A stretch of DNA of 64,000 bases from Escherichia coli (lineage in GTDB: Bacteria > Pseudomonadota > Gammaproteobacteria > Enterobacterales > Enterobacteriaceae), in NCBI RefSeq assembly GCF_046105845.1, contig NZ_CP151004.1. The stretch is one strand, 5' to 3'. Position numbers and translations under genes: made by a program. This document shows, piece by piece, positions 6,259-36,833 of this stretch. Positions within the stretch are counted from its first letter, which is position 1. Every line of letters begins with the position of its first letter. The notes below the pieces were generated by a model. The model did not search any database and was not told the DNA's origin. It saw nothing but the letters and a program-made list of their open reading frames with translations.

Positions 6259-7416
6259 CTACCGCTCTTCATCCAGTTGTAACGCCACATACAGCAGCAA
6301 TCTGTCATCAAAATTGCCCAAATCAAGCCCGGTCAGTTCCGATATACGATTAAGCCGATACTCCAGGGTATTACGATGAATAAACAGCGCCTTTGACGTT
6401 GCCAGCGGCTGCACGTTATGGCGAAACCACGCCGCCAGCGTTCGCCGCAGCAAGCCGTTATTGTCCATCGCTTTCAGCCGCGCCAGCGGTCGCGCCAGTT
6501 CGTTGGCCTGCCAGTCGCCACGCAAACTGTCGAGTAACACAGGTAACATCAGATCCTGATAAAAATAGCAGCGACTTTCTGGCATCCGTTGTTTACCCAC
6601 CACCATCGTCGTTTTCGCCGTACGATAGGATCGGGCAATACTGCCAGGACCGGTAAAATAGTTGCCCAGCGAAACGCGAAAACGCAGCTGGCCGTACTCT
6701 TTCATGCGGGTAATCAGTTGTTCAACTCGCTTACGATGATCTTCTGCATCCCAGCGCCCAAAAGAGTTCAACGCCGGTTTCAACACCACCATTTCGGTTA
6801 GCGAGACAATCGCCACCAGATTATTACGCTCGGGCGTAGTCAGCGCGTTTTGCAGTTGTTGTAACTCCGCCATTGCGCTGTCCACACCAAGCTGACCGCT
6901 GTCGACCTCAACAATAGCCACCACTCGCGGTTGATTGAGATCGATCCCCAGCCGTTGCGCCCATTCCGTAAGTGCGGGAGTATTCTCCTCAGCCTGAATC
7001 AGGTTCATCACCAGTTCTTCCCGCAAACGGCTATCCTGCGCCAACAGGTGCATCAACCGCGACTGTTCCAGCATCATTTCAGCCGTCATGCAGACCAGTT
7101 CGCCATATTTACGCAGGTTCTCTGGTTCACCAGTCAGGCCAATTACGCCGACAATTTCACCTTCCAGCCGTAACGGCAGATTAATCCCCTGCCGCACACC
7201 GTGCAGATGACGTGCCACCGCGTCATCGATATCGACGACTCGTCCCTGTGAAAGTACCAGCAATGCTCCTTCGTGCAATTCACCAATACGCTCACGATCG
7301 CCGCTGCCGATAATTCGCCCGCGGGCATCCATTACGTTGATATTGGTATCGATGATGCGCATGGTACGTGCCACGATATCCTGCGCCATTTTGGTATCAA
7401 GATGCCAGCCAGCCAT
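6259..7416 (-). CDS. cdaR: Carbohydrate diacid regulator (PucR/CdaR family)
   Basis: ORF 6259-7434 (-); start taken at MAGWHLDTKMAQDIVARTMRII (385 aa); C-terminal helix-turn-helix. Confidence 0.9.
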   Translation of the reverse strand: MAGWHLDTKMAQDIVARTMRIIDTNINVMDARGRIIGSGDRERIGELHEGALLVLSQGRVVDIDDAVARHLHGVRQGINLPLRLEGEIVGVIGLTGEPENLRKYGELVCMTAEMMLEQSRLMHLLAQDSRLREELVMNLIQAEENTPALTEWAQRLGIDLNQPRVVAIVEVDSGQLGVDSAMAELQQLQNALTTPERNNLVAIVSLTEMVVLKPALNSFGRWDAEDHRKRVEQLITRMKEYGQLRFRVSLGNYFTGPGSIARSYRTAKTTMVVGKQRMPESRCYFYQDLMLPVLLDSLRGDWQANELARPLARLKAMDNNGLLRRTLAAWFRHNVQPLATSKALFIHRNTLEYRLNRISELTGLDLGNFDDRLLLYVALQLDEER

Positions 7417-7534
7417 AAGTCCTCCGTTATGCACGGCTTAGCATAAGGAAGTACGTAACGTACGGCATTGTGCAAATGCCCAAAGGATGATGAAGATGTA
7501 TGGAGTTGTGGCGAAGTTCACAGATTGTAAGGAG

Positions 7535-7570: not shown

Positions 7571-8995
7571 TTACTGCATTAACAGGTAGATGGTGCTGTC
7601 GCCGCGCTGAATGTTCAGTGCCAGCACAGACGGTTTGCTGTCGAGAACTTTACGCAGTTCAGCGATGTTTTTCACTGCCTGCTGGTTCGCGCCGATAATC
7701 ACATCACCTTTCTTCAGGCCGATCTGCGCAGCCGGAGTGCCCGTTTTCACGTTGTTCACTACCACGCCCTGATCTTTGCCTTTGTTGCTCATCTCAGCGC
7801 CTTCAATACCGTTGAAGATGGAGCTGGAATCAACCTGATTCTGGCTGCTCTGCTGCAGTTCCAGATTCACGTTGACCTGCTTACCGTCGCGCAGCAAGCC
7901 CAGGGTCAGTTTGCTGCCCACCGGCATAGTACCCACCTGAGCACGCAGGGCGGCAAAGCTGCTGATTGGCTTACCGTTCAGTGAGGTGATCACATCTCCC
8001 GCTTTAATGCCCGCTTTTGCAGCGGAGGAATTAGGCAGAACCTGGCTTACGAAAGCACCGCGCTGGGCGTCAACTTTCATCGCTTTCGCCAGTTCGGAGT
8101 TCAGCTCAGTCCCCATAATACCCAGCTCACCGCGTTTCACCTGGCCGTATTCCACCATCTGCGAGGTCAGGTTTTTCACCATGTTGCTCGGGATAGCAAA
8201 ACCGATACCGATGTTGCCGCCGTCCGGTGCGAGGATCGCGGTGTTGATACCGATCAGTTCACCGTTCAGGTTAACCAGCGCACCACCGGAGTTACCACGG
8301 TTGATCGCTGCATCGGTCTGGATGAAGTTTTCGTAGTTTTCGGCATTCAGCCCGCTACGCCCCAGCGCAGAGACAATCCCGGAAGTTACCGTCTCACCCA
8401 GACCAAACGGGTTACCAATCGCTACGGTGTAATCACCCACGCGCAGTGCATCAGAATCCGCCATCTTAATTGCGGTCAGGTTTTTCGGGTTCTGGATCTG
8501 GATCAGCGCGATATCAGAGCGCGGATCTTTGCCGACCATCTTCGCGTCGAACTTACGGCCATCGCTCAGCTGGACTTTAATCACCGTCGCGTTATCAACA
8601 ACGTGGTTGTTGGTGACGACATAGCCTTTATCGGCATCAATGATGACGCCGGAACCCAGCGCCATGAATTTCTGTTGCTGGCCGCCACCATTACCGCCCT
8701 GGCCCCCCTGGCAGAACGGAGAGCTCTGGAACGGAGAACCTTCCTGGCAGAACGGAGAATCATCACCGAAGAACTGCTGGAAATTACGCGGCATACGCGG
8801 CGTATTAACGGTTGTGCTACCTTCTACGTTAATGCTGACCACTGAAGGCATCACCTTTTCGAGCATCGGTGCAAGGCTTGGCATCTGCTGGGCTGTCGTT
8901 GCTGAAGAAGTCTCAGCCGCCGTTGCAGAGAGCGGAGATAACGCCAAACCTAAACTCAGAGCCAGTGCACTCAGTGCTAATGTGGTTTTTTTCAT
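7571..8995 (-). CDS. degP: Periplasmic serine endoprotease DegP/HtrA
   Basis: 474-aa ORF MKKTTLALSALALSLGLALSPLSATAAETSSATTAQQMPSLAPMLEKVMPSVVSINVEG...; trypsin-like plus two PDZ regions. Confidence 0.97.
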   Translation of the reverse strand: MKKTTLALSALALSLGLALSPLSATAAETSSATTAQQMPSLAPMLEKVMPSVVSINVEGSTTVNTPRMPRNFQQFFGDDSPFCQEGSPFQSSPFCQGGQGGNGGGQQQKFMALGSGVIIDADKGYVVTNNHVVDNATVIKVQLSDGRKFDAKMVGKDPRSDIALIQIQNPKNLTAIKMADSDALRVGDYTVAIGNPFGLGETVTSGIVSALGRSGLNAENYENFIQTDAAINRGNSGGALVNLNGELIGINTAILAPDGGNIGIGFAIPSNMVKNLTSQMVEYGQVKRGELGIMGTELNSELAKAMKVDAQRGAFVSQVLPNSSAAKAGIKAGDVITSLNGKPISSFAALRAQVGTMPVGSKLTLGLLRDGKQVNVNLELQQSSQNQVDSSSIFNGIEGAEMSNKGKDQGVVVNNVKTGTPAAQIGLKKGDVIIGANQQAVKNIAELRKVLDSKPSVLALNIQRGDSTIYLLMQ

Positions 8996-9040
8996 GTATT
9001 TCAGTCTCGATTAACAGATAACGCAAAATTGCTGTGTTCT

Positions 9041-9068
9041 TCAGATTCGTTTTATAGCGCGAAGTTCC
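9041..9068 (-). promoter_or_regulatory. Sigma-E type promoter of degP
   Basis: On the - strand GGAACTT, 16-nt spacer, TCTGA (window aagttcc at 9062-9068 and tcaga at 9041-9045); matches sigma-E consensus spacing. Confidence 0.7.
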
Positions 9069-9124
9069 GAACTAAAGTTTCTGCAAAAGGTAAAAATTTA
9101 TTGTTCGTCTTTACAAAAGCCTGG

Positions 9125-10642
9125 TTATTGTTCTACGGCCATCAGACGTCGGTATTCATCCCACGCATAGAGGTCGGTCATACCGCTGATATAATCCTGC
9201 AGCAGGCGGCAACGGTAATAATATTCCCATAGCGGAAACTCAGGAGAATCTGACGGTAATTTACTGACAGCCTCGACATAGGCCAGCCGATGGCGCGTCG
9301 AGAGTTTGTGGAATAAGCGCGATTCAATAGGGAAACGTTTCACCCGTTCTTTTTCTACCAGTTCAGTAAAGTCTGATAACGACAGGCTTAATAAAGGACG
9401 ATAAATCTCTAATAATCCGCTAATGACCCGATAGCCCTGCAATTCAAGCTGCTCGACATCTGGATGGCTAAACACATGTTTTACAGCGACATTTTTATAA
9501 AGCTTAAGAAGATCGCTGCATTCGCTGGCATCTTCCAATAATGCATGATTAAACGTTCCGGCGAAAATCGCAGGCAGATTATCAATAAATCGTTGTGCCG
9601 CGTAGGGTACCAGTTTATTTAGAGTGTTTACCCTTAAATACATAAAAAACTGATCTTCCGTACTGCGGCTTAAACTATTTGAGCGTGATTTTTCCCAGGC
9701 ATTTTCAACCACCAGCGAAAAGAGCGAACCTTTCTCATGCTGGCCCCACGCTTCGTGCAAATGATGATAAAGCTGCTCAACGGTAAATATTCTTTTCTCT
9801 ACCGCATCTTCAAGATCTGCCACACAATAGGAGATGTCGTCGGCAGCTTCCATAATCCACGTTAATGGAAAACGACTGTAAAGCGCCAAATTAAGTTCTT
9901 TACGCAACCGGGCAATATAGGCTTCCTCAGAAAGATAATAACCCGGCTTTTTCATTAAATAGTGATGTGTCTCAGGCGTTTCACCACGCCACCACGCCGG
10001 ACGAGTATATTTTAAAATACCGCCAACCTGTGCCCAGGTGAGATTCATCCGCATCAATGTATGCACCAGACGAATGCCTTGTGCATTCCCCTCAAAATGA
10101 CATAAATCCTGACGTATTTTGCGCCGCAGCTCGTTAAGCGGTTCTTCCCCGTCCCGTAAACGTAGTGCTGCCACGCTGCAGCGATCGTCAGTCAGAGGCT
10201 GGCTTTCGGCATCTTCCGGGTGCAAACGCTGGCGAAACCAGTCATTTATCGCCGCTTCGCCAAAATGACCAAACGGCGGATTGCCGATATCGTGCATCAG
10301 GCATGACATCTCAACAATGCTTTCAAAGGGGCCGGTCAGTTCATCCAGGCCGTATGCTTCCAGCAATTTAAGCTCTTTCAGACGGCTTAAAATTTCTTTG
10401 GCGATGTAGCGCCCCACCTGCTGGACTTCCATCGAGTGGGTAAGACGCGTGCGCACGGCGGCATTGCGCTCCAGTGGAAAAACCTGGGTCTTTTGTTGCA
10501 GACGACGAATTGCCGGAGAGTTGATGATACGCCCGCGATCGCTCTCGAAGATCCGCAGGATCTCATGTTCGGTTTTAACGCCCTGTGGTGAACGGTAACG
10601 ACGATGCCAGTTTATTTTTTTTCGGAAATCAATCTGTGCCAT
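9125..10642 (-). CDS. dgt: Deoxyguanosinetriphosphate triphosphohydrolase
   Basis: 505-aa [58 protein letters not shown]...; HD domain. Confidence 0.96.
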
Positions 10643-27619: not shown

Positions 27620-28869
<1,250 letters not shown>

Positions 28870-34232: not shown

Positions 34233-36833
34233 GTGAACAAAAAAACAACTACAAATTATCACTATCCCCTTACACATATCGCCACGTTTTGCGCACTGCT
34301 TTACAGCAGTAGTGCTTTAAGCGCCGAGCACGTTGAGTATGACAATACCTTCCTGATGGGTCGTGATGCTTCAAATATTGATCTTAGTCGCTATAGCGAG
34401 GGTAACCCAACATTACCAGGCCTTTACGACGTCAGCGTTTATATCAACGACCAGCCCGTCACCAACCAGAGCATTGCCTTTGTTACGGTTGAGGGTAAGA
34501 AAAACGCTCAGGCTTGTCTCACCCTGAAGAACTTATTGCAGTTTCATATCAATCAACCCGATATCAATGTTGCTAATGCCGTGCTGCTTGCAAGGGACAA
34601 CGAACTCGGGGATTGCCTCAACCTGGCGGAACTCATCCCCCAGACGTCGATTCGTTATGATGTCAACGATCAGCGCCTGGACATCTATGTTCCCCAGGCA
34701 TGGGTAATGAAAAATTACCAAAACTATGTTGATCCTTCCTTGTGGGAAAACGGTATCAACGCTGCAATGTTGTCTTACAACGTCAACGCATATCACAGTG
34801 AAAGCCCCGACAGGAAAAATGACAGTGTTTATGCTGCTTTTAATGGCGGTATGAATTTAGGAGCATGGCGGTTACGCGCTACCGGTAACTACAGTTGGAG
34901 GAATGATTCAGACAGTAACTATGACTTTCAGAATCGCTACCTCCAGCGCGATCTCGCATCCTTACGCTCGCAGTTAATTGTCGGTGAGTCATATACCACG
35001 GGTGAAACCTTCGATTCAGTCAGCATTCGGGGAGTTCGCTTATATAGCGACAGTCGCATGTTACCCCCTGCGTTAGCCAGTTTTGCGCCAATTATTCATG
35101 GTGTTGCGAACACTAACGCCAAGGTCACTATTACCCAGGGCAGTTATAAGATCTATGAAACCACCGTACCGCCAGGTGCGTTTGTCATCGATGATCTTAG
35201 CCCATCGGGTTACGGCAGCGATCTTATCGTCACTATTGAAGAAGCGGATGGTTCAAAGCGTACTTTCTCACAACCATTTTCATCAGTTGTACAGATGTTA
35301 CGGCCAGGCGTCGGGCGCTGGGATATCAGCGGTGGTCAGATCATAAAAGACGATATTCAAGACGAGCCCAATCTTTTTCAGGCCAGTTATTACTACGGTT
35401 TAAACAACTATCTGACCGGTTATACCGGGATCCAACTTACTGACAATCATTACACTGCCGGATTACTGGGTCTGGGCCTGAATACCTCTTTAGGTGCTTT
35501 TTCATTCGATATCACCCATTCAAATGTCAGCATTCCGGATGATAAAACCTATCAGGGGCAAAGCTATCGCCTCTCCTGGAACAAATTATTCGAAAATACC
35601 AATACATCGCTAAATATCGCGGCTTATCGCTATTCAACGCAGAATTACCTTGGCCTTAACGACGCACTGACTTTAATCGACGAAGTAAAACATCCGGAAC
35701 AGGACCTCGAACCGCAAACCATGCGTAACTACTCTCGCATGAAAAATCAGGTGACGGTCAGCATTAGCCAACCGCTGAAATTTGAGAAACAGGATTACGG
35801 TTCATTCTATCTCACCGGGGATTGGTCAGATTACTGGGCTTCCGGGCAAAATCGCAGCAATTACTCTATTGGTTACAGTAATAGCGCTTCCTGGGGGAGT
35901 TACAGCATCAGTGCACAACGTTCATGGAATGAGGATGGTGAAACGGATGATAGCATCTACCTTAGTTTCACCATTCCAATTGAAAAATTATTAGGCACAA
36001 GCCATCGCGATTCCGGTTTTCAGAGTATTGATACTCAGTTAAATAGTGATTTTAAAGGCAATAATCAGCTCAACATCAGCAGCAGTGGCTTTAGCGACGC
36101 AAATCGCGTCAGTTACAGCGTAAACACCGGCTATACAATGATGAAAGCCAGTGACGATTTAAGTTACATCGGTGGTTATGCCAGTTACGAATCGCCCTGG
36201 GGAACGCTTGCAGGTTCCGTTTCCGCAAGTAGCGATAACAGTCGTCAATTCTCGCTTAATACTGACGGTGGATTCGTGCTGCACAGCGGCGGCCTGACAT
36301 TCAGTAACGATAGCTTTAGCGACTCCGACACACTTGCCGTTGTACAAGCCCCTGGAGCAAAAGGTGCGCGCATTAACTATGGCAACAGTACAGTAGACCG
36401 CTGGGGATACGGCGTGACCAGTGCCCTCTCGCCATATCATGAAAACCGTATCGCTCTGGACATTAGCGGAATCGAAAATGATGTAGAAATGAAATCTACC
36501 AGTGCAATTGCCGTCCCTCGTCAGGGCTCTGTTGTCTTCGCCGATTTTGAAACCGTCCAGGGACAATCGGCAATCATGAATATTAAACGTACTGACGGTA
36601 AAAATATTCCATTCGCGGCGGATATCTTTGATGAACAAAATAACATGATTGGTAACGTCGGCCAGGGCGGACAAGCTTTTGTTCGAGGCATCGAACAGCA
36701 AGGTAATATCCGCATCAACTGGGTTGAAGAGGGTAAACCTGTCGCATGTATTGCCCATTATAAGCAAACAGCGGATCAACAAAAATTAACACAAACTATT
36801 ATTCTGAATGGAATTAGTTGTCAGATACAGTAA
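34233..36833 (+). CDS. htrE: Fimbrial outer membrane usher
   Basis: ORF 34149-36833 overlaps ecpD; start placed at GTG 34233 after AGGAAG ribosome-binding site, giving (M)NKKTTTNYHYPLTHIATFCALLYSSSALSAEHVEYDNTFLMG... (866 aa). Confidence 0.88.
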   Translation: MNKKTTTNYHYPLTHIATFCALLYSSSALSAEHVEYDNTFLMGRDASNIDLSRYSEGNPTLPGLYDVSVYINDQPVTNQSIAFVTVEGKKNAQACLTLKNLLQFHINQPDINVANAVLLARDNELGDCLNLAELIPQTSIRYDVNDQRLDIYVPQAWVMKNYQNYVDPSLWENGINAAMLSYNVNAYHSESPDRKNDSVYAAFNGGMNLGAWRLRATGNYSWRNDSDSNYDFQNRYLQRDLASLRSQLIVGESYTTGETFDSVSIRGVRLYSDSRMLPPALASFAPIIHGVANTNAKVTITQGSYKIYETTVPPGAFVIDDLSPSGYGSDLIVTIEEADGSKRTFSQPFSSVVQMLRPGVGRWDISGGQIIKDDIQDEPNLFQASYYYGLNNYLTGYTGIQLTDNHYTAGLLGLGLNTSLGAFSFDITHSNVSIPDDKTYQGQSYRLSWNKLFENTNTSLNIAAYRYSTQNYLGLNDALTLIDEVKHPEQDLEPQTMRNYSRMKNQVTVSISQPLKFEKQDYGSFYLTGDWSDYWASGQNRSNYSIGYSNSASWGSYSISAQRSWNEDGETDDSIYLSFTIPIEKLLGTSHRDSGFQSIDTQLNSDFKGNNQLNISSSGFSDANRVSYSVNTGYTMMKASDDLSYIGGYASYESPWGTLAGSVSASSDNSRQFSLNTDGGFVLHSGGLTFSNDSFSDSDTLAVVQAPGAKGARINYGNSTVDRWGYGVTSALSPYHENRIALDISGIENDVEMKSTSAIAVPRQGSVVFADFETVQGQSAIMNIKRTDGKNIPFAADIFDEQNNMIGNVGQGGQAFVRGIEQQGNIRINWVEEGKPVACIAHYKQTADQQKLTQTIILNGISCQIQ

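Follow-up and report, generated by a model that had tools for sequence, protein, structure and literature searches.

The sequence GGAACTT, 16 nt, TCTGA, found on the minus strand immediately upstream of degP in a 64,000-nucleotide stretch of Escherichia coli DNA (hereafter the window), is almost certainly the core promoter at which sigma-E (RpoE) RNA polymerase initiates transcription of this gene. DegP acts on misfolded outer-membrane proteins, for which it is the main periplasmic protease and chaperone, and the sigma-E consensus was first established from two promoters, of which the sigma-E promoter of degP was one. In K-12 the sigma-E promoter of degP (htrA), designated degPp, is said to have been described by Lipinska in 1988 and by Erickson and Gross in 1989. 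It should be emphasized that the degP sigma-E promoter is already known, well characterised and of textbook status; the element is real but ordinary. The original prediction, which read the motif as a sigma-E promoter in keeping with the known regulation of degP, holds with respect to gene, motif, spacing and position, and the K-12 literature agrees with it. Full-text searching of the literature with the sequence of the promoter gave matches that were all irrelevant.

The locus is the dgt-degP-cdaR region of the E. coli chromosome (Table 1). Assignment of the gene downstream of the motif as degP, which had been made from the sequence, is confirmed by a match to the NCBIfam equivalog NF008189 that extends across the full 474 aa of the product. 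A 401-nt query over the region displayed at least 99% identity to 5424 of 5426 complete E. coli genomes, in which the features are annotated as dgt and degP; RefSeq E. coli genomes with a 100% match along the query likewise carry the degP annotation. Among the 5424 records with a match over dgt-degP, three bear a plasmid label and are probably mislabelled or chimeric replicons. The sigma-E motif is contained within the 129 nt that separate dgt and degP. Between positions 8850 and 9350 a sigma-70 scan called no sigma-70-like promoter, and no intrinsic terminator was called in the same interval, and thus none between dgt and the degP promoter.

Table 1. Features of the degP promoter region and its flanking genes, in window positions.
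Feature	Position	Strand	Basis
sigma-E -35 element, GGAACTT	9068..9062	-	direct sequence reading; 7/7 bases match the consensus
sigma-E spacer, CGCGCTATAAAACGAA, 16 nt	9061..9046	-	direct sequence reading
sigma-E -10 element, TCTGA	9045..9041	-	direct sequence reading
Predicted sigma-E start, A (40-nt 5' UTR)	9035	-	discriminator and purine-start rule; position 1 of RF02700; Salmonella 40-nt UTR
Candidate sigma-70 -10 hexamer, TATAAA, within the sigma-E spacer	9056..9051	-	putative, from sequence reading
CpxR box degP1, GTAAAGACGAACAAT, centre about -72 from 9035	9114..9100	-	identical to curated known site, Table S1 of PMC9600279
CpxR box degP2, GTAAATTACCGTCAG, in the 3' part of dgt	9264..9250	-	GTAAA-N5-GTAAA scan (2 mismatches); identical to curated site (PMC9600279)
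degP 5' UTR, HtrA fourU-type RNA thermometer hairpin	9035..8990	-	Rfam RF02700
degP CDS, 474 aa	7571..8995	-	NCBIfam equivalog NF008189, 935 bits against a cut-off of 720, full length
dgt (dGTPase), upstream gene	9125..10642	-	NF003429, 896 bits
cdaR (CdaR), downstream ORF	6259..7434	-	ORF identified as CdaR

Read directly on the minus strand, the promoter region consists, in order, of TTAGTTC, GGAACTT, CGCGCTATAAAACGAA, TCTGA and AGAACACAGCAATTTTGCG; the coordinates 9041-9068 given for the motif in the original prediction are exact, base for base. The last base of TCTGA lies 46 nt from the A of the degP ATG (8995), and the earlier estimate of about 50 bp upstream of the start was a fair one. 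The exact two-block pattern occurs once in the 64 kb when both strands are considered, against an expectation of about 0.008 per window, and was present in none of 100 dinucleotide-preserving shuffles. When two mismatches were allowed the window yielded 3 matches, compared with 3.6 expected by chance, and thus only the exact match is informative. A relaxed scan of the whole window for sigma-E-like motifs identified two matches in addition to that of degP. The first, GGAACTT-17-TCTTA at 28815..28843 (plus strand), is located at the 3' end of sfsA some 200 nt upstream of dksA; it was judged to be strain-specific and probably a chance occurrence because the corresponding -35 in K-12 reads GGAAATT, in which the key C is replaced by A. 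The second, at 35037..35010 (minus strand), has a poor -35, CGAACTC.

The sigma-E consensus derived from 28 mapped starts comprises a -35 of GGAACTT and a -10 of TCAAA, with a spacer of 15-19 nt in which 16 is strongly preferred, a discriminator of 5 or 6 nt, a start at A or G, and 26 or 27 nt between the -35 and +1, as reported in Rhodius et al. (PMC1312014). Description of the degP motif as a consensus promoter is thus justified for the -35 element and the spacer, but only in part for the -10, as TCTGA corresponds to an older form of the consensus and agrees with the later logo TCAAA at only three of five positions (T, the invariant C and the final A), the two middle bases being different. 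This older -10 consensus was derived partly from the degP promoter itself, and the term is therefore slightly circular when applied to the -10 element. The same survey of sigma-E promoters describes A/T-rich, UP-like peaks near -48/-49 and -57/-58 (PMC1312014). In the degP promoter, T-tracts are evident at 9087..9084 (about -52 to -49) and 9096..9092 (about -61 to -57), numbered from 9035, and the T-rich, UP-like DNA between the CpxR box and the -35 element probably helps to tune the output of degP.

The conservation of the motif was evaluated in a comparative set containing one genome per species, which provided 80 loci encoding DegP proteins of 83-100% identity, 79 of which had sufficient upstream DNA. 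The loci derive from more than 20 genera of the Enterobacteriaceae, including Escherichia, Citrobacter, Salmonella, Enterobacter, Klebsiella, Kosakonia, Kluyvera, Buttiauxella, Atlantibacter, Franconibacter, Mangrovibacter and Leclercia. The pattern GGAACNN/15-17 nt/TCNNA was present 64-84 nt before the start codon in 70 of the 79 loci, and the core pattern GAACTN/15-17 nt/TCNNA was present 40-100 nt upstream of degP in 76. Elsewhere in these loci the core pattern was found 13 times in 690 kb, equivalent to about 0.001 per 61-nt target. Among the 76 motif-bearing loci the -35 was GGAACTT in 58, GGAACTA in 12 and TGAACTT in 6, while the -10 was TCTGA in 66, TCTTA in 7 and TCTCA in 3, such that TCTNA was invariant; the spacer was 16 nt in 73 loci and 17 nt in the other three. 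The three exceptions are all Buttiauxella, which retain GGAACTT but have TCTAT at a distance of 17 nt. In an alignment of 75 distinct upstream regions the GAACT core and the T, C, T and final A of the -10 are at least 95% conserved, while the columns that adjoin the two blocks (9071..9069 and 9040..9038) show some of the highest variability. This pattern supports a function for the motif but does not constitute independent proof, given the relatedness of the loci and the fairly good conservation throughout the intergenic region.

The position of the transcription start can be estimated from three lines of evidence. The A at 9035 follows a discriminator of 5 nt after TCTGA and lies 26 nt from the -35, and it is the base at which the Rfam leader model begins. 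In Salmonella Typhimurium three mapped htrA starts are summarised in PMC5602114: one with a 40-nt UTR that was at first observed under stress only, a second with a 47-nt UTR reported to be constitutive at a low level, and a third inside dgt that generates a long UTR. As the alignment of the loci revealed that the distance between TCTGA and the ATG is the same in Salmonella and E. coli, the 40-nt UTR start is equivalent to window position 9035, and that with the 47-nt UTR to 9042. In K-12, a tagRNA-seq study with controlled sigma-E induction reports that the degP start described earlier responds like bona fide sigma-E starts; it sits in a stretch of 28 consecutive tagged nucleotides, and the authors assigned it to the processing sites and proposed starts at 180840/42 instead (PMC7075262). 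These K-12 positions correspond to window 9039/9037, and are thus 2-4 nt upstream of the base predicted by rule. Collectively, Rfam, Salmonella and the K-12 tagRNA-seq data place sigma-E-responsive 5' ends 2-6 nt past TCTGA; the +1 in this strain is predicted at 9035, with the exact base uncertain by a few nucleotides. In K-12 the sigma-E-responsive 5' ends thus lie at and just downstream of the motif, and the stress-only start in Salmonella also lies downstream of it, where the original prediction required a start to be found. The Salmonella 47-nt UTR and dgt-internal starts, in turn, indicate that sigma-E is not the sole route to degP mRNA.

The distance between TCTGA and the leader is not uniform across the genera. 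In Escherichia, Salmonella and Citrobacter the discriminator is 5 nt (window 9036..9040). In the alignment, Klebsiella, Kosakonia, Franconibacter and other genera have some 7 additional bases separating TCTGA from the conserved ACACAGCAA leader block, and the sigma-E start, and the length of the leader relative to the thermometer, must therefore differ in those genera.

The dependence of this promoter on sigma-E is carried over from the K-12 literature and would be expected to apply to the near-identical sequence described here. The chaperones assigned to the conserved core sigma-E regulon of K-12 include DegP (PMC1312014). In the account given by Rhodius 2012, the degP promoter was included among 60 cloned sigma-E promoters and belonged to the ten that displayed basal activity in vivo, and it was an outlier in the model of in vivo promoter strength (PMC3326320). 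When sigma-E was overproduced in K-12, degP was the top-induced gene, increasing 56-fold, while overproduction of CpxR alone did not induce degP, which the authors attributed to the requirement of degP transcription for sigma-E (PMC2731931).

The degP promoter resembles several characterized systems. K-12 degPp represents the same locus, with identical -35 and -10 elements, spacer length, leader, CpxR box and distance to the ATG, and differs only at two adjacent bases in the spacer. The htrA promoter region of Salmonella Typhimurium (htrAp1/p2/p3) shares the sigma-E motif, its spacing and the 40-nt leader, although the discriminator is AGAAC in the window and CGTAC in Salmonella, and the degP leader matches the htrA thermometer family RF02700 over its full length. 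Core sigma-E promoters such as rpoE P2, rpoH P3, micA, rybB and bamA display the same two-block architecture of GGAACTT, approximately 16 nt and TCNNA, and, like degP, have an A/T-rich upstream region and a short discriminator. In contrast to these promoters, degP has an additional site for the activator CpxR, and thus integrates two envelope-stress pathways.

Two CpxR boxes from the curated list are identical to sequences in the region. In degP1 the first pentamer is perfect and the second reads ACAAT, giving three mismatches overall to GTAAA-N5-GTAAA; this box was therefore missed by a scan that allowed up to two mismatches, and was recovered only through the curated list. The scan itself returned 68 matches where about 49 would be expected, a number too large for it to be informative by itself. 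The degP1 box lies within the non-coding block that is best conserved in the dgt-degP intergenic region (9117..9087, TTGTAAAGACGnACAATAAATTTTTAC), where most positions are at least 95% identical across the genera aligned.

The presence of the CpxR box is relevant to the main alternative to a sigma-E promoter, in which an overlapping sigma-70 promoter is dominant, with TATAAA as its -10 and a weak -35 that is offset by CpxR~P bound at 9114..9100, while sigma-E has only a minor role. It could be argued that the conservation of TATAAA within the sigma-E spacer (80-100% across genera) reflects such a promoter, as the constitutive, low-level Salmonella start at window 9042 (PMC5602114) is 9 nt downstream of the hexamer, the curated degP1 box is at a class-I-like distance, and activation of Cpx raises degP 27- to 32-fold in vivo (PMC9600279). 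The sigma-70 scan, however, found nothing acceptable as there is no -35; induction of degP by NlpE was still about 6-fold without CpxR (PMC9600279); and the 56-fold response to sigma-E overproduction alone stands against the lack of any response to CpxR overproduction alone (PMC2731931). A dominant sigma-70 promoter is thus very improbable and could not plausibly take the place of the sigma-E promoter. An overlapping sigma-70 promoter with a poor -35, possibly assisted by CpxR, is plausible as an additional, minor promoter. The proposal that the motif arose by chance and lacks a promoter role, and that degP is served by read-through from dgt or by promoters internal to that gene, draws on the lack of a called terminator between the two genes, on the long-UTR transcripts of Salmonella that begin within dgt (PMC5602114) and on a report that the start of degP in K-12 lies inside a strongly transcribed stretch (PMC7075262), but is effectively refuted, its likelihood being negligible, by the rarity of the exact motif (about 0.008 per window and 0/100 shuffles), its conserved position in 76/79 loci against a background of about 0.001, and the extensive published evidence that degP depends on sigma-E (PMC3326320, PMC1312014 and PMC2731931).

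The leader of the degP transcript matches the RF02700 model over positions 1-46 of 46 (77 bits against a gathering threshold of 52, E about 3e-17), with position 1 at 9035. The match is immediately 5' of the start codon and overlaps the degP ATG at 8995. Both the covariance model and a single-sequence fold pair UUUU with the GAGA of the Shine-Dalgarno sequence. The single-sequence fold is weak (-3 kcal/mol) and no more stable than shuffled sequences (z = +1.5). The view that the leader is without structure, to which this z score might point, was rejected in light of the covariance model and published SHAPE data, and a weak hairpin is suited to a thermometer. Indeed the Salmonella htrA hairpin melts over the range from 30 to 42 degrees C (PMC5602114), and by analogy the degP leader is likely to act as a thermometer that sequesters the Shine-Dalgarno sequence, the function known from Salmonella (PMC5602114). 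In the alignment, the lower stem in E. coli contains an A/C mismatch where the RF02700 consensus has an A-U pair.

With RNA polymerase directed to this promoter by sigma-E, the following sequence of events may be proposed. Region 4 of sigma-E would read GGAACTT at -35, while region 2 would read and melt TCTGA, 16 nt downstream of the -35 element. Transcription would then start about 5 nt past TCTGA, at A 9035, generating a leader of 40 nt. Accumulation of unfolded outer-membrane proteins would lead to degradation of the anti-sigma factor RseA, raising free sigma-E and, consequently, degP mRNA. CpxR~P bound to the box near -72 would boost the output of degP, as K-12 data on Cpx activation suggest, and the leader hairpin, a fourU-type thermometer over the ribosome-binding site, would gate translation by temperature.

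Comparison with K-12 MG1655 revealed that 159 of 161 aligned bases are identical, and that both differences are adjacent bases in the spacer after the -35. At 9060-9059 (minus strand) the window has CG where K-12 has AG, that is CGCG here and CAGG in K-12. The exact 71-nt promoter allele of the window is carried by 4020 of 5424 complete E. coli genomes (~74%), and the K-12 allele by 1384 (~26%). As CGCG is also found in the aligned Salmonella, Klebsiella and Franconibacter sequences, the window allele is probably ancestral and the CAGG of K-12 derived. Spacer sequence is reported to correlate with the strength of sigma-E promoters (Rhodius 2012, PMC3326320), and a small quantitative effect of the CGCG/CAGG difference is thus conceivable. 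The suggestion that it alters degP output, through the strength of the sigma-E promoter, the TATAAA sigma-70 promoter or both, is speculative and we regard it as rather unlikely.

Recognition of the degP promoter annotates the window and adds no new biology. A by-product is a compact map of the controls stacked upstream of degP, comprising the CpxR box, UP-like DNA, the sigma-E core, a possible sigma-70 -10 and the thermometer leader. The analysis also indicates that the spacer allele of laboratory K-12 is a minority form, and probably a derived one. If the two spacer bases do influence output, measurements made in K-12, by which the degP promoter is defined, would be unrepresentative of most E. 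coli.
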